Below are positions 3,177 through 27,518 of a stretch of 32,000 nucleotides of DNA, piece after piece. Location of the stretch: assembly GCF_002803295.2 (NCBI RefSeq), contig NZ_PGGB02000013.1:5826-37825 (forward strand), read 5' to 3'. The translations under genes were made by a program, and so were the position numbers. Positions within the stretch are counted from its first letter, which is position 1. Each line of letters opens with the position of its first letter. Below the pieces are notes generated by a model. The model made no database searches and was not told the DNA's origin. It saw only the letters and a program-made list of their open reading frames with translations. This DNA comes from Caedibacter taeniospiralis. Lineage in GTDB: Bacteria; Pseudomonadota; Gammaproteobacteria; Francisellales; Francisellaceae.

Positions 3177-4115
3177 ATGAATTCATTTTCTAAAGATATC
3201 TACGCTTTGGCAGGACCTACTGCCTCAGGTAAAACCGCATTATCGATTGAATTAGCTAAAAAGATGAATGCCGAAATTATCAGCGTTGATTCGGCTTTGA
3301 TCTACAAACGACTGAATATTGGCTCGGCTAAGCCCACCGTACTGGAGATGGATGGCGTTACCCATTACCTGATTGATATTATCGAGCCCTGGTTAGCTTA
3401 TTCAGTGAATGATTTTTTGGTTGATGCTAAAAGATTAATCACAGAGATTCATGCGCAAGGCAAAGAAGTCCTGTTAGTCGGTGGCACGATGATGTATTTC
3501 AAGGCGCTGCAAGAAGGAATTTCCAGGCTACCAGAGGCTGACGAAGCTGTAAGGATGCAGATAAAGCAAAGGTCTTTGGAATACTGGTATCAGTTTTTGC
3601 AACAGCAGGATCCTAAAACTGCGGTAAAACTTAATCCTAATGATCGGCAGCGCATTGAGCGCGCGACAGAGGTGATATTGCTAACTGGGAAAGCTTATTC
3701 CAAGATGGTGGTACAAAATGCAAAAGAGGGTGGCTTAGGAGATTCACTCAAGCTTTGTGCGTTAGTACCAAGGGATCGTAAAGCTCTCCACCAGCTGATT
3801 GAAAAACGCTTTTTGAGCATGCTTGAAAAAGGTTTTTTAGATGAAGTTCGTGGGTTAAAGCAGCTCAAGAATATGCACGCTGATTTGCCATCCATGCGTA
3901 GTGTGGGTTATCGTCAGGCCTGGCAGTATCTTAATGGTGAGTATGACTATCATGAATTTGTAGCTAAAGGGGTAGCAGCGACACGTCAGCTCGCCAAAAG
4001 GCAGCTAACCTGGATTCGCAATTGGCATAAGCCAATTTACCTGGTTGATGCCAATCAAAATTCTCAAATGAAGTTTGATCAGATTAAGGTGTTCTTCGAT
4101 TGGGAGAGCTTTTAG
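3177..4115 (+). CDS. miaA: tRNA dimethylallyltransferase
   Basis: P-loop GPTASGKT, then ISVDSALIYKRLNIGSAKPT, with the typical MiaA length of 312 aa. Confidence 0.9.
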   Translation: MNSFSKDIYALAGPTASGKTALSIELAKKMNAEIISVDSALIYKRLNIGSAKPTVLEMDGVTHYLIDIIEPWLAYSVNDFLVDAKRLITEIHAQGKEVLLVGGTMMYFKALQEGISRLPEADEAVRMQIKQRSLEYWYQFLQQQDPKTAVKLNPNDRQRIERATEVILLTGKAYSKMVVQNAKEGGLGDSLKLCALVPRDRKALHQLIEKRFLSMLEKGFLDEVRGLKQLKNMHADLPSMRSVGYRQAWQYLNGEYDYHEFVAKGVAATRQLAKRQLTWIRNWHKPIYLVDANQNSQMKFDQIKVFFDWESF

Positions 4116-9290: not shown

Positions 9291-10028
9291 ATGTTACATT
9301 GTGCTTTTTCTGGGGAATTATTGGGATGCCTTGTTCTGATATTATTGGGTGGCGGGGTGGTTGCTGGTGTTTTACTCAAACAGTCAAAAGCAGAAAATAG
9401 CGGCTGGATGGTTATTACCGCGGGTTGGGGATTTGCAGTGATGATGGCAGTGTTTGTGGCGCAAGCGGCAGGATCGCCACAAGCGGATATTAATCCTGCG
9501 GTAACCCTTGAGAAATACCTGCTAGGTGATATTTATTCATCTTTTCTGCAAGTGATTTGGTTATGGCTGGCTCAGGTTATTGGCTGCTTTTTAGGGGCTG
9601 TGCTGGTCTGGCTTGCCTACTATACTCATTGGCAATATACCGAAAACGCCCATTTTAAATTAATGATTTTTTCCACTTATCCAGCTATGCGCCATAAGGG
9701 CAGCAATTTTGTCACTGAACTTATTGCCACGACTTTGCTTATTGTGTTTGTTGGAGCATTGATCAGTTATGGCAACCAATTACCATTTGCTAATGGTTCA
9801 TTACCTTATGTCTTTGGTTTTGCCGTTTGGGGAATTGGTTTATCTTTAGGTGGTCCCACGGGTTACGCGATTAATCCCGCGCGTGATTTAGGACCCCGAA
9901 TTGCCCATGCCCTATTGCCAATTAAAGGCAAAGGTTCAAGTGACTGAAGTTACGCATGGGTCCCGATATTGGCACCCTTAGCAGGAGCAGTGATTGGGTT
10001 TGTATTAATTCGGCTTTTTATGTTTTAA
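9291..10028 (+). pseudogene. glpF: MIP-family aquaglyceroporin (GlpF-like) interrupted by an in-frame TGA at 9945-9947
   Basis: Both NPA boxes are present (INPAVTL and INPARDLGPRIAH). The ORF track stops at ...KGKGSSD*, but the same frame continues as SYAWVPILAPLAGAVIGFVLIRLFMF* to 10028, which is the conserved last TM helix. The TGA sits where the family has Trp (SDWSYAWVP). Confidence 0.75.
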
Positions 10029-10210
10029 AGCAAAGTAGGGGCGAAAAATGTTTCGCTTTTTATTAAATCTTCTTCCAGTGCGAGCAATGCCTTCTCAAAA
10101 TTAATGACAAGAATTCCATCACTAAGATATCGATCTTCCTTGCCCATATAGAGAATCGTGCACTTAGCCATAGGGTAATCCTGTTTAAAATGCTTAAGAC
10201 CTGTTGGCAT
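10025..10210 (-). pseudogene. C-terminal remnant resembling DUF4143-type AAA+ ATPases
   Basis: GLKHFKQDYPMAKCTILYMGKEDRYLSDGILVINFEKALLAL resembles the conserved C-terminal tail of DUF4143 ATP-binding proteins. No upstream ATPase domain is present. Confidence 0.35.
10036..10061. repeat. Truncated copy of the GGGGCGAAA...TTTCGCCCC palindromic element; on the plus strand it also forms a weak hairpin plus T-run downstream of the full-length glpF frame
   Basis: AGGGGCGAAAAATGTTTCGC matches the reverse complement of the hairpin at 23810-23837 in 20 of 21 positions. The GCGAAA/TTTCGC stem is followed by TTTTT. Confidence 0.45.
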
Positions 10211-10575
10211 TCTGCAGAAATGACGGGGTCAGGGCTGATTTTCGCACACTACCCCCAACAATATAATAATTGGAAAGTTTAAGTCGATCGATGAATTCAA
10301 TCAAAACATCAGTAAAACCCTTTATGCTGTAGTACCAAGCATATTGATGGCAATCAACGTAGTTTGATAAACCATGTCCAGGAAAATCGAGGCAAACCAA
10401 GTTGTACTGCTTTTAATAAATCGCAAAGTGGTTCATATGATGTTGTCGATGAATGAAAAGCATGTAATAACAGCAAAGTTGTATTTTTCCCAGATATGGC
10501 ATTTGAGTAGTGTAGATTTCCAAATTTAAAATTCATAATATCTGACTGCATACTGATTAATTTTTTTACTGTCAT
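10194..10575 (-). pseudogene. Alpha/beta-hydrolase pseudogene, frameshifted and 3'-truncated
   Basis: Two overlapping ORF fragments together give an alpha/beta-hydrolase N-terminal half: ...TTLLLLHAFHSSTTSYEPLCDLLK / (frameshift) / VCLDFPGHGLS...YYIVGGSV (nucleophile elbow). The sequence breaks off there. The start ATG overlaps the nupC stop (ATGA at 10572-10575). Confidence 0.6.
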
Positions 10576-11925: not shown

Positions 11926-11987
11926 CCTTACCACTCTAGAGAGGAGTGGTAAGGCTTGTGGGAGAGGTCGCCTTGCCAAGCAAGGCG
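11926..11987. repeat. Two perfect hairpins plus a (CCTTAC)x3 microrepeat spanning the stop codon of the DUF2063 gene
   Basis: CCTTACCACTC-tagagag-GAGTGGTAAGG at 11926-11954 (11-bp stem; the stop codon lies at the loop edge). CGCCTTGC-caa-GCAAGGCG at 11969-11987. Direct repeat CCTTGCCTTACCTTACCTTACC at 11911-11932. Confidence 0.55.
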
Positions 11988-12736
11988 GGTGGGGGGTAGA
12001 TTACCCCTTCATTTAATAAATTCCACATTAAAGTCCGATTGCTTGCCATTACTTTTGCTACTTCCTTCTTATCCTTGATAAGCATTACTTGTCCAAGCGC
12101 CTGCTTGAGCGTTTGAGGTGTCTGTTTTAAATGCTGTAAAAATCTTGCGGTTAGCGCATTTAATTCAAGGGATTGAACTGCGTCTTTGCTATTGCGATAA
12201 ATGCAAAAAAAAGTGGGCTTTTGATCCCCTATCTCAGGCAAAAATGTCGCGCTAATTTGATGCACAGGATAATGATAAGCGACAATTTCAGCGACATCAG
12301 ACACAGAATATATCGTGTGATTATCATCAATTTCTCGAGTCATTAAAGTCGATGGCGCCTCGCCTTCAGCCATTTCAATGACCATTTCCATCCACTCATA
12401 ATGCGCAAGCTCCATTAAGAAAGGGTAATCTGTTTGCCACAGCATTTTATGGTGCAGTAAGAATTCAACAAAGCTTTGAGGAATTTCATAGAAGAAGGGG
12501 GATTGGCATGGATGCTCAGCATAGAATTGTGTGACTATTTCGTGCCACTTTTTTGAGGGTAGTGCATTTATACAGATTGGAAAACAATTACTCAGCAATT
12601 CATTTATTCCGTTAAAAAAAGATTGCTCATACACTTGCATCCTTTGAAGCGGAATACCTTCAGGCAGAGGCACTCTATCTTTGTGACGTATGCGTCTGGC
12701 AAAGCTTTTTTGGGTGGCTTGAAATTCAAATGGCAT
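11936..12736 (-). CDS. DUF2063-family RiPP maturation partner (HvfC/BufC-like)
   Basis: 266 aa starting MPFEFQATQKSFARRIR. The start overlaps the stop of the upstream DUF692 gene by 11 nt. Size, position and general N-terminal character fit the DUF2063 proteins that accompany DUF692 enzymes. Confidence 0.7.
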   Translation of the reverse strand: MPFEFQATQKSFARRIRHKDRVPLPEGIPLQRMQVYEQSFFNGINELLSNCFPICINALPSKKWHEIVTQFYAEHPCQSPFFYEIPQSFVEFLLHHKMLWQTDYPFLMELAHYEWMEMVIEMAEGEAPSTLMTREIDDNHTIYSVSDVAEIVAYHYPVHQISATFLPEIGDQKPTFFCIYRNSKDAVQSLELNALTARFLQHLKQTPQTLKQALGQVMLIKDKKEVAKVMASNRTLMWNLLNEGVIYPPPALLGKATSPTSLTTPL

Positions 12737-13571
12737 AAGCTTTCCCCTCTATAAAACGCTGTTGTAATTGCTGAAGTTGCTTTGTCTCTTGTAGCAAAAC
12801 CTCTAATTGAGGGACTTCATTATCGCGCTCAAGCAAAGTAGGCAAGAGCCCATGCTTTTGATAGGTGTAATTGAGCAGTTGCCAAACAGGCTCGATTACC
12901 TCATCACCATGGGTATCAATAATCAAATCGGGAGCCTTTTGCCAATGCCCTGCGATGTGGATATAGGCTATTTTATTCGTTGGCATTTGATCGATAAATC
13001 GGTAAGCGTCATAGCCATGATTAACGCTATTGACGTACACATTATTCACATCGAGTAACAACAAACAATCCCCTTCACGAAGAATTGCGTTGATAAAGTC
13101 CGCCTCTGACATATCTCCCTTGGGTAAGGCGTAATAAGAGATGTTTTCCAAAGCAATGCGCTGCTGTAACGCTTCTTGGACCTGTTTAATCCGCTTGACC
13201 ACATAACTCACCGCTTCTTCTGTGAAAGGAATAGGCATCAAATCATATAGCTGCCCCTGGCTGTCACTGCAAAAACTCAAGTGTTCACTGTAAAGTTGAA
13301 TCTTGTGGTTGTGGAAAAATCTTTTTAAAGATTCAATGAAACTTATGTCCAGTGGAACCAATCCACCAATAGACAACGACAAACCATGGCAGATCATGGG
13401 ATATTGCTCGCTATAGGCACGGAGTATTTTTTGGCGCTTGCCACCAATTCCCAGCCAGTTTTCAGGAACAATCTCAAGAAAATCAACAGGATGTGGCTTC
13501 ATTGCTAATAATGGACCCATAAACTGGCGTCTTAAACCAAGACCGCATGTGCCAATATTGTCTAGTGACAT
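12726..13571 (-). CDS. DUF692 / MNIO-family (MbnB-like) RiPP maturase (HvfB-like)
   Basis: GLGLRRQF...DFLEIVPENW...HGLSLSIGG...SEHLSF...LYDLMPIPFTEE...LENISYY...LLLLDVNNVYVNSVNHG...YIHIAGH...IDTHG...PTLLERDNEVP follows the UPF0276/DUF692 TIM-barrel motif series. I prefer the start at MSLDNIG (13571, preceded by a GGGAAG Shine-Dalgarno-like sequence) over the track start at 13592. Confidence 0.85.
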   Translation of the reverse strand: MSLDNIGTCGLGLRRQFMGPLLAMKPHPVDFLEIVPENWLGIGGKRQKILRAYSEQYPMICHGLSLSIGGLVPLDISFIESLKRFFHNHKIQLYSEHLSFCSDSQGQLYDLMPIPFTEEAVSYVVKRIKQVQEALQQRIALENISYYALPKGDMSEADFINAILREGDCLLLLDVNNVYVNSVNHGYDAYRFIDQMPTNKIAYIHIAGHWQKAPDLIIDTHGDEVIEPVWQLLNYTYQKHGLLPTLLERDNEVPQLEVLLQETKQLQQLQQRFIEGKAYAI

Positions 13572-13591
13572 AGTAACTTCCCTGCAACACA

Positions 13592-13921
13592 CTATTGGTC
13601 AGTATTGCTCGCACCGCAAGAACCGTCACTATCTTTCATGTTTGAGCCGCAAGCACCATCACTGTCTTTCATGTTGGCGCCACAAGATCTGTCTGCTTTA
13701 TTACCCATTGAATCAGCACTTGCCCCATCCATGTTTTTCTGTTGCGTGCCCATTTTGTTTGCGCCGCATTTTCCAGCACCACATTGACCATCTGCTTTTT
13801 GCATGAATTGTCCTGAGCCCATTTGCGTAGCCTGCATAGTATTGGAGTCAGCATAACTTGCGCTCATTGCAAGACTCAAAGCTAACCCTGTTCCCATAGC
13901 GATTAATGATTTTTTATCCAT
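13592..13921 (-). CDS. Secreted Cys-Gly-repeat RiPP precursor (HvfA-like metallophore precursor)
   Basis: I prefer the start MDKKSLIAMG at 13921, which is preceded by AAAGGAGAAAATAAA. There is a Sec signal ending SYA/D. The 85-aa mature region has exactly five Cys, all in C-G-[AS] context, plus eight Met, many Asp and no aromatic core. It lies immediately upstream of the DUF692 and DUF2063 genes. Confidence 0.7.
   Translation of the reverse strand: MDKKSLIAMGTGLALSLAMSASYADSNTMQATQMGSGQFMQKADGQCGAGKCGANKMGTQQKNMDGASADSMGNKADRSCGANMKDSDGACGSNMKDSDGSCGASNTDQ
13611..13690. repeat. 33-bp (11-codon) tandem repeat, about 2.4 copies, inside the precursor gene
   Basis: CCGCAAG/CCGCAAG/CCACAAG recur at 13614, 13647 and 13680, exactly 33 nt apart. 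They encode CGANMKDSDGA / CGSNMKDSDGS / CGAS. Confidence 0.8.
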
Positions 13922-14102
13922 TTTATTTTCTCCTTTAATTACAGTTATGTAAAGAATCACACCAATGATGCAAGTGAAGGCGCACGCTTAGAGTGATCAT
14001 TCCGAGCATTAGGCTATTATGATATTTTTTGATTTGCAATGGAAATACAAATTTATTTCAAGGTGATTGGTGAACTATGGGATAAAGATGAAAGGACGAG
14101 GC

Positions 14103-14302
14103 GAAACTTTATAGTGCCACCCATAACTGCCGCTGCTTACATGGCTCTTGAACCCTCAAGAACCAAGTGGGTGCGCTCGCTGTTTCTTGGGCTTCTCAGT
14201 CATGCTGAGCATGCACGCCAAAACAAGTACTACGCTCCCGATATTTATACATCGGCTCAAGAATGTAAAGACTGGCTAACAGCACAGGCGACACTAAACT
14301 TC
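14103..14302 (-). ncRNA. ssrS: 6S RNA (ends approximate, +/- 15 nt)
   Basis: The minus-strand sequence shares blocks, in the same order, with the remembered E. coli 6S RNA: CCAGUC, UGAGCCGAU, GCAUGCUC(A)G...CUGAGAAGCC (CUCAG/CUGAG hairpin), UCUUGA-GGGU-UCAAGA hairpin (GGGUUCAAG), and GCAGCGGCA. The 5' and 3' ends can form a long imperfect closing helix. The locus is adjacent to ygfB, as in E. coli. Confidence 0.78.
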
Positions 14303-14422
14303 GACTTAGATCATAGAAGTATCCGTGCTTGAGTGCAAGCGATTTGTCGTAAAAAAAATTTAGATAAAAATAAACGACAATGATACGATGGGCGCATGCT
14401 GATTTTAATGACTTAAATAATA

Positions 14423-26426: not shown

Positions 26427-26750
26427 ATGATTGTGATGAACAAAGAGTTGATTGCAAAGTTTTGTAAAAAACATGCGCAAGTGAAAAAGAGTTTTGATCC
26501 ATTGCTCAAGATTTTAGAAGCTAATAACTTTAACGGGTTTAGAGATCTAGCGGAAATATTTAAAACGGCAGATTATGTTTATCATGTTTTTACGATCTTT
26601 GATGTTGCAGGCAACAATTATCGTATGGTAACCATTGTCGATTATGATTTTTCAGTGATTGATGTTCGCTATGTATGGACACATGAAGAGTACAATAAAA
26701 AGCAAGCGGTATTAAAGCGAGAGGCAAAGAAATATGTTAGCAATAAGTGA
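26427..26750 (+). CDS. higB: Type II toxin HigB (RelE-superfamily mRNA interferase)
   Basis: FDVAGNNYRMVTIVDYDFSVIDVRYVWTHEEYNK matches the HigB-family core (..GGNKYRLV..I.Y....V.I..V.TH.EYDK). The toxin-first gene order and 17-nt overlap with the HTH gene are typical of higBA. Confidence 0.8.
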   Translation: MIVMNKELIAKFCKKHAQVKKSFDPLLKILEANNFNGFRDLAEIFKTADYVYHVFTIFDVAGNNYRMVTIVDYDFSVIDVRYVWTHEEYNKKQAVLKREAKKYVSNK

Positions 26751-27135
26751 AATAAACAAATCCTGGTCGTTACTTATGCCATACATTGAAGCGTATAAAA
26801 CCAAAAAGCAATACGAGGAATCAAAAAAACTGTTGCGTGAGTTAATGAAATTGAGTGCAGATGAGAAGACACAAGAAATACAATCTTTTGCAAGAGCATT
26901 GGCTAAGCAGGTTAATAACTATGAAAGTAAACATTTTAGTTTTGAAAATAGTGCTAACGCCAAGGATGTTTTGCTATATCTGATTAAAATGTATGGTTTA
27001 ACACAAAAAGATTTACCTGAAATCGGGTCTCAATCACTGGTATCTAAGATTTTAAAAGGTGAGCGAGAGCTAACACTTGAACACATAAAGGCGTTATCCA
27101 AACGCTTTAATGTATCGGTCAATACCTGGTTTTAA
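26734..27135 (+). CDS. higA: HigA antitoxin (XRE-type helix-turn-helix)
   Basis: The C-terminal LIKMYGLTQKDLPEIGSQSLVSKILKGERELTLEHIKALSKRFNVSVNTWF is the typical HigA/XRE HTH. The gene overlaps higB. Confidence 0.8.
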   Translation: MLAISEINKSWSLLMPYIEAYKTKKQYEESKKLLRELMKLSADEKTQEIQSFARALAKQVNNYESKHFSFENSANAKDVLLYLIKMYGLTQKDLPEIGSQSLVSKILKGERELTLEHIKALSKRFNVSVNTWF

Positions 27136-27185: not shown

Positions 27186-27518
27186 TCATGCAATTCCCAA
27201 AAACACCGACAATAACCTTTCAATTTCTAACAGGTTATTCCTGCTCAATGCCCCAAATGGAATACCAATCTGTTCCCTTGCAACTGTATGTAATTTATCG
27301 ATCATTACCTGTGATACTCTATTTAATCCATTTATTTCACTAGGTTTGACAGTATATCTAAATAAAGGGGTTTCCCTTATTTCACTGGTTATAGGTAAAA
27401 TAGTGATTGACGGATGTTCTGAAAACAAATCTGATTGAATAACCACTGCTGGTCGAGGTTTTCCATAATCTCCTCGCAAAGAGACAGTGACAATATCGCC
27501 ACGTTTAATCATATCCAC
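27186..27518 (-). CDS. PemK/MazF-family type II toxin (endoribonuclease)
   Basis: RGDIVTVSLRGDYGKPRPAVVIQSDLF...ITILPITSE...SQVMIDKLHTV matches the PemK/MazF SH3-like fold subfamily that pairs with DUF3018 antitoxins. Confidence 0.85.
   Translation of the reverse strand: MDMIKRGDIVTVSLRGDYGKPRPAVVIQSDLFSEHPSITILPITSEIRETPLFRYTVKPSEINGLNRVSQVMIDKLHTVAREQIGIPFGALSRNNLLEIERLLSVFLGIA

Follow-up and report, generated by a model that had tools for sequence, protein, structure and literature searches.

A putative hvfABC (captophorin) operon with a divergent cysteine-repeat precursor in the Paramecium endosymbiont Caedibacter taeniospiralis

What do three closely packed minus-strand genes of Caedibacter taeniospiralis make, and does their product belong to a known family of peptides or to a new one? 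The genes lie at 11936-13921 of a 32-kb stretch of this genome (the window, by which we mean the whole 32,000 nucleotides analysed) and encode a small precursor, an enzyme of the DUF692 or multinuclear non-heme iron oxidative (MNIO) type and a DUF2063 partner. Their owner is an R-body-producing killer endosymbiont of Paramecium, recorded in our analysis under Fastidiosibacteraceae, order Thiotrichales. An earlier, sequence-only reading had taken the locus for an MNIO cluster making a peptide that is ribosomally synthesized and modified post-translationally (RiPP), Sec-exported, modified on cysteine and probably copper-binding, and had added that it may be an uncharacterized subclass. The core of that reading agrees with curated protein models, and we put at roughly 85% the probability that this is a functional hvfABC operon making a secreted, thiooxazole-modified, Cu(I)-binding peptide. 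The suggestion of novelty fared less well, as described below. No paper connecting Caedibacter with an HvfABC system was found in our literature search.

Assignment to the HvfABC family

The coordinates bear out three co-directional genes, in the order precursor, MNIO enzyme and DUF2063 partner, with a 20-nt spacer between the precursor stop and the hvfB ATG (13572-13591) and an 11-nt hvfB/hvfC overlap that recurs in two related loci, L084 and L085. Both maturation proteins score above the cut-offs of their families. HvfB reaches 409.7 bits (cut-off 360) against NCBIfam NF003818, the HvfB family MNIO-type RiPP peptide maturase, covering positions 2-264 of 264, and matches Pfam PF05114 (DUF692/MbnB_TglH_ChrH) at E = 1.5e-104; HvfC reaches 232.4 bits (cut-off 142) against NF050145, the HvfC family RiPP maturation protein, covering positions 1-236 of 237, and matches Pfam PF09836 and PF22106 (DUF2063 and NGO1945_C). 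The earlier identification of the second and third genes thus held when these models were run. The precursor passes the HvfA-family domain model NF050137 (KCGExKCG_twice) with 24.3 bits against a cut-off of 19.5, and the identical 109-aa protein is already in NCBI for C. taeniospiralis, named as HvfA family. The middle enzyme remains below the cut-offs of the BufB, ApyH, ChrH and MbnB NCBIfam models.

Solved structures point the same way. The nearest to HvfB is PDB 3BWW (E = 1.7e-68), itself 72% identical to Haemophilus influenzae HvfB (bioRxiv 10.64898/2026.07.17.739211), and alignment of the metal-ligand motifs shows HGLSLS, SEHLSF, ENxSYY, LDVNNxYVN, HIAGH, DTHG and LLERD all kept. Counterparts of the HvfB site-3 ligands N175, D242 and H244 (bioRxiv 10.64898/2026.07.17.739211) fall, as mapped by motif only, within VNNVY and DTHG. 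The nearest structure to HvfC is PDB 3DEE/NGO1945 (E = 3e-8), and the literature attributes both 3BWW and 3DEE/NGO1945 to an HvfABC-type RiPP system (PMC12668002). Judged from sequence, then, the locus is an hvfABC (oxazolin or 'captophorin') operon of the MNIO-PME1 type.

Much is known of this family. The HvfABC system of nontypeable H. influenzae takes 4 Da from each of six Cys in AEGKCGEGKCG repeats and yields a Cu(I)-binding product (PMC11252979). The modification was first assigned, in 2024, as oxazolone/thioamide (PMC11252979) and has been reassigned to 5-thiooxazole by two groups, including the original authors (PMC12668002; bioRxiv 10.64898/2026.06.05.730506; 10.64898/2026.07.17.739211). 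For homologues, experiments underlie the loss of 4 Da per Cys, the chromophore at 302-305 nm, the assignment as 5-thiooxazole and the binding of Cu(I) (PMC11252979; PMC12668002; bioRxiv 10.64898/2026.06.05.730506), the chemically characterized members being oxazolin, fontiphorin and gonophorin (PMC12668002 / PMC13097082; PMC11252979). The MNIO-PME1 catalogue of the Mitchell group holds > 24,000 loci, in about half of Pseudomonadota reference genomes, and names the products captophorins (PMC12668002), the group having also worked out which substrates FonBC accepts, while a survey of the MNIO landscape counts about 2,000 Buf_EGKCG/oxazolin precursors, with RiPP, MNIO, DUF2063 and DoxX genes 'in various combinations' (PMC12452194). 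From these characterized homologues we infer the likely modification chemistry, number of modified Cys, export, metal and physiological role of the Caedibacter product.

The Caedibacter locus shares with oxazolin its gene order (the partner carrying a RiPP recognition element, RRE, type domain), a Sec signal instead of a leader, and repeated Cys-Gly. Unlike oxazolin, its precursor lacks the AEGKCGEGKCG repeat, has five Cys rather than six modified plus two in a disulfide, contains no Glu, is rich in Asp, Ser, Asn and Met, and has no N-terminal disulfide Cys; its locus lacks DoxX (hvfX), and its HvfB has Asn at a site occupied by Phe. With the Lys-Cys group of the captophorin class, which includes fontiphorin (FonABC of Fontimonas thermophila) and gonophorin, it has in common an MNIO-PME1 pair and a Cys-rich precursor, and it retains the Cys-Gly dyad, the acidic residue at -3 and a probable counterpart of the enzyme's Arg-Arg pair. 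It departs from this group in having Lys at -1 at one of five sites, Asn for the FonB Phe, and an 11-residue, one-Cys unit instead of a 5-mer pair. Its odd number of sites is normal, fontiphorin having seven thiooxazoles.

Two other memberships were considered and rejected. Bufferins (BufABC) resemble the Caedibacter system in an MNIO enzyme of a closely related sequence cluster, a DUF2063 partner and a Sec-exported precursor, and their thiooxazole-bearing products (Buf1 of DUF2282 type, Buf2 of Cys-Lys type, with 6/12 Cys) buffer periplasmic copper (PMC11626156, PMC12452194). However, the Caedibacter enzyme scores 284.5 bits against a cut-off of 310 for BufB (NF050167), and its precursor has neither a Cys-Lys dyad nor a DUF2282 or any other Pfam match, in line with the earlier remark that the core is not of the DUF2282 type. 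Methanobactin synthesis (MbnABC) likewise relies on an MNIO enzyme, which turns Cys residues in a ribosomally made peptide into a copper ligand, but with an MbnC partner, a short leader/core peptide and oxazolone/thioamide chemistry, and with export and TonB-dependent uptake genes (MATE, MbnT) of which the Caedibacter window has none; the enzyme scores only 50.5 bits against a cut-off of 325 for MbnB (TIGR04159), the partner is a DUF2063 protein, and the precursor is a 109-aa Sec pre-protein.

A divergent precursor and its enzyme

The N-terminus of the precursor, judged by inspection to be a Sec signal, runs from a Lys-Lys pair in the n-region through a hydrophobic core of 15 residues to S-Y-A at -3 to -1, and each of its columns lines up with those of the signal peptides in 58 full-length family precursors. 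The signal peptide of H. influenzae HvfA is cleaved, as demonstrated experimentally (PMC11252979). The box that follows is a candidate HvfC recognition site: the family form NPFxMxELSSGYM becomes SNTMQATQMGSGQFM in the Caedibacter precursor, and the MQAxxMxSGY form is also found in the closest relatives, L084-L087. Signal peptide, box and first (D/E)GxCG site all align with the 58 family precursors. The mature part (85 aa; eight Met, 10 Asp, no Glu) has as its sole Cys residues 47, 52, 80, 91 and 102, in the contexts GQCGAG, GKCGAN, RSCGAN, GACGSN and GSCGAS. Cys47 and Cys52 form a CGAGKCG pair, and Cys80, Cys91 and Cys102 are single and spaced 11 residues apart in units of NMKDSDGxCG[AS] with one Cys each. 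These observations reproduce what the sequence-only reading had reported of the peptide, namely its length, strong Shine-Dalgarno, SYA/D signal, five C-G-[AS] motifs, eight Met and many Asp.

Set against the 58 relatives, this composition is unusual. Gly follows Cys at 5/5 sites (99% in the relatives), Lys precedes it at 1/5 (87%), and 2/5 Cys stand in i,i+5 pairs (76%); Glu is missing (mean 12%), Lys is scarcer (about 8% versus a mean of 17%), and Asp (about 12% versus 5%) and Met (about 9% versus 4%) are more abundant. The Gly at +1 is followed by an uncharged Ala or Ser at every site, and Asp stands in for Glu at -3 in four of five. FonBC needs a small +1 residue and no charged residue after Cys, tolerates Ala, Thr and Arg at -1, and fully modifies DGKCG (PMC12668002). 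By its sequence, then, the Caedibacter precursor is a compositional outlier that retains the features FonBC requires: a small +1 residue, no charge after Cys and an acidic -3.

That such a precursor is unique was an idea we rejected. A profile of three Caedibacter-type precursors, run exhaustively with HMMER over 1.84 billion representative proteins, gave 18 matches at E <= 1e-3, where a word-indexed search gave three. Single-Cys repeats occur in other lineages: four SDSSCGANMKK units after an NPF box in P0125, ADGKCGADKK units in P0128 and P0130, SDGSCGADK units in P0129, and EGKCGDKKK alternating with EGSCGDKKK in P0139. The precursor of L040, one of 80 loci compared around the closest HvfB relatives in species-representative genomes (54-61% identity), has ten Cys, eight of them single, and 13% Met. 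The single-Cys repeat architecture is, on this sequence comparison, rare rather than unique, a sparse recurrent variant of a known family and not a new class. The three-gene layout is ordinary too, since 31/56 related loci with sufficient flank (of the 80) also have no DoxX, the other 25/56 having it adjoining.

The notion of an uncharacterized subclass therefore stands only in part. While the single-Cys DGxCG variant is experimentally uncharacterized, it is a divergent corner of a known family with look-alikes elsewhere, and the novelty was overstated: the precursor falls in the large, characterized HvfA/oxazolin (EGKCG, 'Lys-Cys') class and already carries an NCBI name, whereas the sequence-only reading had named the Hvf maturases without placing the precursor itself in this class. 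The locus is a member of a large, characterized and already annotated family, and its unusual points are minor and overturn nothing.

Among the related loci, those of the Methylophaga/Piscirickettsiaceae type (L001, at 3191-3946; L005, L006, L008, L012 and L016) have no EGKCG precursor directly upstream of HvfB. The gene in that place encodes a secreted protein, conserved and about 250 aa long, with one LLCGCPI motif and no Pfam match, on which an HvfB-type MNIO enzyme may act as on a substrate of another kind, the size of a protein.

Comparison among Caedibacter lineages bears on which Cys are used. Other assemblies labelled C. taeniospiralis encode a 124-aa precursor variant, P0002 (a 'hypothetical protein' in NCBI), in which the CGAGKCG pair has been lost through Cys47 to Tyr and a 5-residue deletion, and which has five 11-residue units, so that both variants total five Cys-Gly sites. 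A metagenome contig, L088, joins a P0002-type 3' end, across an altered spacer, to an hvfB that is intact and 97% identical, after which hvfC begins; this hvfA-hvfB spacer (L088, 1-161) contains a 45-nt insertion flanked by the 8-nt direct repeat CAGGGAAG, and the contig of a further locus of this lineage, L081, ends within that insertion. Between the two lineages hvfB differs by 21 synonymous and nine non-synonymous codons, a crude ratio of non-synonymous to synonymous change (pN/pS) of about 0.11. hvfB is under purifying selection while the precursor repeat array turns over, and this conservation of the enzyme alongside a changing substrate speaks for the single-Cys units as true substrates and for a locus still in use. 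In L081 (5880-6406) the hvf module lies beside upstream MurJ and LysM genes, without a 6S RNA gene. A shorter relative with two Cys-Gly sites, the 87-aa P0003, has an unrelated gene, not hvfB, after it on two short metagenome contigs (L089, 268-1014; L090, 133-930), and may be a precursor copy that is orphaned or in decay.

The enzyme falls in a sub-clade that differs at a presumed substrate-contact residue. In FonB, Asp249 is the proposed catalytic base, Phe250 touches substrate Lys3 and Gly5 and tunes selectivity at -1, and the pair R15-R16 contacts the acidic -3 residue of the substrate motif (PMC12668002). By motif position, Caedibacter HvfB D250 would be the counterpart of the base, and N251 that of Phe250. 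Whereas 77/80 species-level relatives read LLERD-F-N-[I/L]-P, the sub-clade reads LLERD-[N/S/H]-[D/E/A]-x-P, a non-Phe form seen in 35/120 of the best HvfB protein clusters and 27/30 of the top ones. A protein database search turned up enzymes closer still (60-67% identical) in Thiotrichales, both uncultured and isolate, and the nearest set (58-67% identical) comprises L084-L087 and L092 from this group and L091 from Legionella pneumophila; no experimental characterization of these six systems was found in the literature searched. The sub-clade precursors share a signal peptide, MDKK(T/S)LIAMGTGLALSL (of the form MDKK(T/S)LIA(M/L)GTGLALSL), and the MQAxxMxSGY box common to L084-L087 is degenerate in L092. 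The L092 precursor is nonetheless the most similar to that of Caedibacter, with four single DG[HNS]CG sites, a terminal CGMGKCG pair and the same ...TDQ ending, and its enzyme (P0011) has the identical ERDNEVP. Unlike Caedibacter, most relatives in the sub-clade retain Lys at -1 and several CGxGKCG pairs, and L084 and L092 carry DoxX.

Caedibacter HvfB and the L084 enzyme keep the Arg-Arg pair, their precursors having Asp or Glu at -3, while the L085-L087 enzymes have a single Arg and their precursors Ser, Ala or Gly at -3. These correlations at the Arg pair and the Phe site fit the published FonB model, although such covariation of enzyme and substrate rests on a handful of loci (about 10 examined). 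Phe does not go with Lys at -1 as a strict rule, since L054 has Ser at every -1 yet retains Phe. The L. pneumophila locus (L091, 264-5173) comprises genes for a Cys/His-rich 86-aa protein, precursor, HvfB, HvfC, thioredoxin and a DsbD-like protein, together with an anti-sigma-like gene and divergently oriented MerR, MerC and CMD genes, a context that points to mercury, gold or copper stress.

Proposed pathway and competing readings

By analogy with the characterized systems, HvfA would be translated as a 109-aa pre-protein and bound in the cytoplasm by HvfC, whose RRE-type domain probably engages the HvfA N-terminal MQAxxMxSGxxM box, and its Cys-Gly sites would thereby be offered to HvfB. Using O2 and a di-iron cofactor of mixed valence, this enzyme would then carry out a four-electron oxidation (-4 Da) of each Cys to 5-thiooxazole. 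The modified HvfA would be exported by Sec and cut after SYA by signal peptidase I, leaving an 85-residue, acidic, Met-rich product in the periplasm or released from the cell. There, up to five thiooxazole thiolate/nitrogen donors would bind Cu(I) and buffer copper stress, perhaps assisted by the eight Met thioethers.

Several observations weigh against so direct a transfer. The NF050137 match spans just 13 of 29 model positions (1-13), at the paired segment of residues 44-56, and the HvfA equivalog model of the H. influenzae type (NF050188) fails, with 22.2 bits against a cut-off of 95. The canonical EGKCG occurs at none of the five sites, and Lys precedes Cys at just one. In HvfB, Asn251 replaces a presumed substrate-contacting Phe, so that specificity is not simply transferable from Phe-bearing relatives. 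Finally, DoxX, copper-resistance and regulator genes were not found nearby in the window: a Pfam screen of its 27 open reading frames (ORFs) of >= 110 aa showed no DoxX, TonB-dependent receptor or exporter gene, as the sequence-only reading had noted for the adjacent genes, and no copper-homeostasis gene, and a DoxX profile built from the relatives had no match among ORFs of >= 60 aa even at E <= 1.

Some of these points would suit a narrower reading, in which only the Cys47/Cys52 pair is modified and Cys80, Cys91 and Cys102 remain free thiols, disulfides or plain thiolate/Met metal ligands. The family domain model matches the paired segment alone, Lys at -1 is missing from four of the five sites, and FonBC modified substrates with AKCGA, GKCGT or NVCGG just once (PMC12668002). 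We nevertheless think this unlikely. FonBC tolerates Ala, Thr and Arg at -1 (PMC12668002), the sub-clade of enzymes with Asn or Ser at the Phe site is accompanied in L092 by similar DGxCG single sites, and the other Caedibacter lineage, with five single-Cys repeats, keeps an intact hvfB under purifying selection and, on one and the same contig, the start of hvfC; since the pair is entirely lost there, the repeats are its only possible substrate. That the sites become pairs of oxazolone and thioamide, the methanobactin chemistry and the one given in the NCBI product name, seems very improbable. The wording of the NCBIfam family names and the original HvfA assignment of 2024 (PMC11252979) speak for it, but HvfA has been reassigned to 5-thiooxazole by two groups (PMC12668002; bioRxiv 10.64898/2026.06.05.730506; 10.64898/2026.07.17.739211) and the MbnB model is far from its cut-off (50.5 bits versus 325). 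Of the two chemistries that the sequence-only reading had offered, thiooxazole is the one now to be expected and oxazolone/thioamide has been superseded for HvfA (PMC12668002; bioRxiv 10.64898/2026.06.05.730506).

A role other than copper detoxification is improbable but deserves some weight, be it copper acquisition in the manner of a chalkophore, handling of another thiophilic metal (Au, Hg, Zn) or defence against oxidative stress in Paramecium. What oxazolin does for the cell is described as still unknown, and service as a chalkophore has been considered (PMC11252979); gold induction marked the first description of related operons (PMC12452194), the Legionella relative lies beside MerR, MerC, thioredoxin and DsbD genes, and no copper gene occurs among the window ORFs. 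On the other hand, every characterized member binds Cu(I) and is induced by metal excess, not starvation (PMC12668002; PMC11626156), and no TonB-dependent receptor or re-import system was found nearby in the window. Hardly credible, in our view, is that the locus is a decaying, disused remnant in a reduced endosymbiont genome. Probable gene fragments do lie in the window (split ORFs at 10025-10575 and a short MIP channel gene), the precursor changes fast between lineages, and DoxX is absent from the locus; yet all three ORFs are full length, with HvfB and HvfC covering 2-264/264 and 1-236/237 positions of their models, the Shine-Dalgarno and 5' region of hvfA are conserved, hvfB has a pN/pS of only about 0.11, and both precursor variants keep exactly five Cys-Gly sites.

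Operon signals, neighbourhood and significance

Table 1. Features of the Caedibacter hvfABC locus, in window coordinates
Feature	Position	Strand	Remarks
hvfA-like precursor gene	13592-13921	-	109 aa, stop codon within span; ORF and translation
hvfB, MNIO (DUF692) iron-dependent oxidase	12726-13571	-	281 aa, ATG at 13571
hvfC partner, DUF2063 N-domain and NGO1945_C/RRE-type C-domain	11936-12736	-	266 aa
Sec-type signal peptide, MDKKSLIAMGTGLALSLAMSASYA	13850-13921	-	codons 1-24; predicted cleavage after SYA, then D
N-terminal box, DSNTMQATQMGSGQFMQ	13799-13849	-	codons 25-41; counterpart of conserved family box NPFxMxELSSGYM
Core with five Cys-Gly sites	13595-13792	-	codons 44-109
33-nt tandem repeat encoding NMKDSDGxCG[AS] units	13614-13687	-	2.2 copies, 82% matches
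HvfB codons R14-R15 (GLGLRR)	13527-13532	-	putative match of the FonB Arg pair
HvfB codons E248-R249-D250-N251-E252	12816-12830	-	LLERD-N-E versus LLERD-F-N in most relatives
Shine-Dalgarno of hvfA, AAAGGAGAA	13928-13936	-	identical in L081
hvfA 5' region, presumed promoter/leader	13937-14047	-	conserved across Caedibacter lineages with unlike upstream genes
Perfect 11-bp inverted repeat, 7-nt loop, across hvfC stop codon	11926-11936 / 11944-11954		once in window

The AGGAG core of the hvfA Shine-Dalgarno stops 8 nt short of the ATG. In alignments between Caedibacter lineages, conservation upstream of hvfA extends over about 125 nt in total, through the Shine-Dalgarno up to the ATG, and because it persists despite a different neighbourhood, it suggests an operon with a promoter region of its own. 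Matches to sigma-70-like hexamers lie at 14045-14016 and 13953-13925. A structured RNA (riboswitch or leader) in this region was rejected, as its fold energy equals that of shuffled sequences (z = -0.04). At the other end of the operon, no T-run follows the inverted repeat at 11926-11954, a second palindrome of 8 bp lies at 11969-11987 near the hvfC 3' end, and the last 18 HvfC residues (PPPALLGKATSPTSLTTPL), which extend beyond the HvfC model, are encoded by the GC-rich palindromic stretch 11926-11987. One could read this stretch as a small element that was inserted, or as a hairpin resembling a terminator at the operon 3' end.

A full-length 6S RNA gene (ssrS; 107 bits on Rfam RF00013, whose gathering score is 46) lies on the same strand at 14114-14293, 193 nt upstream of hvfA. 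The 97-aa ORF at 14039-14332 (+) was considered as an operon regulator and rejected as spurious, being antisense to the 6S RNA gene and without a Pfam or NCBIfam match. Further away, three successive short ORFs in different frames at 10025-10575 (-) (73, 68 and 61 aa) resemble pieces of one alpha/beta-hydrolase-type gene; one of them holds GHGLS, none has a Pfam match alone, and the trio probably makes up a pseudogene, as one might expect in an endosymbiont genome that is reduced. A MIP/aquaglyceroporin-like gene at 9291-9947 (+), of just 218 aa, matches Pfam MIP positions 11-198 of 222, stays under every NCBIfam cut-off and may be truncated or degraded. A MazF/PemK-type toxin gene at 27186-27518 (-) adjoins the gene of an HTH_3 (Xre-type) protein at 26734-27135 (+), and the two may form a toxin-antitoxin or addiction module.

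More tentatively, and we regard this as a speculation much more apt to fail than to hold, Caedibacter, L092 and P0125 might represent a distinct, fast-evolving captophorin sub-type with one thiooxazole per 11-residue NMK-DSDG-x-CG-[AS] unit. If so, the thiooxazole of each unit would bind Cu(I) together with a neighbouring Met thioether or the thiooxazole of the next unit, the enzyme pocket would have been retuned for a residue other than Lys before Cys (Phe to Asn, ERDNEVP), and repeat copy number would be tuned between strains with the total held at five sites. Retention of the system, under purifying selection, in an obligate Paramecium endosymbiont would then mean protection from host copper, paralleling the virulence role of HvfA in H. 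influenzae.

Regardless of sub-type, the locus adds little for the field at large, given > 24,000 MNIO-PME1 loci and three proteins already named by the NCBI pipeline. Three points are of value, although none of them opens a long-standing question. The two Caedibacter lineages offer a natural experiment on substrate tolerance, in which enzymes 97% identical accompany either a Cys pair plus three single-Cys repeats or five repeats and no pair. The HvfB sub-clade with Asn or Ser in place of the published specificity-determining Phe could guide the engineering of site selectivity. Lastly, a copper-peptide pathway appears to have been retained in the intracellular symbiont of a protist, which fits the idea that such peptides protect bacteria inside eukaryotic cells.

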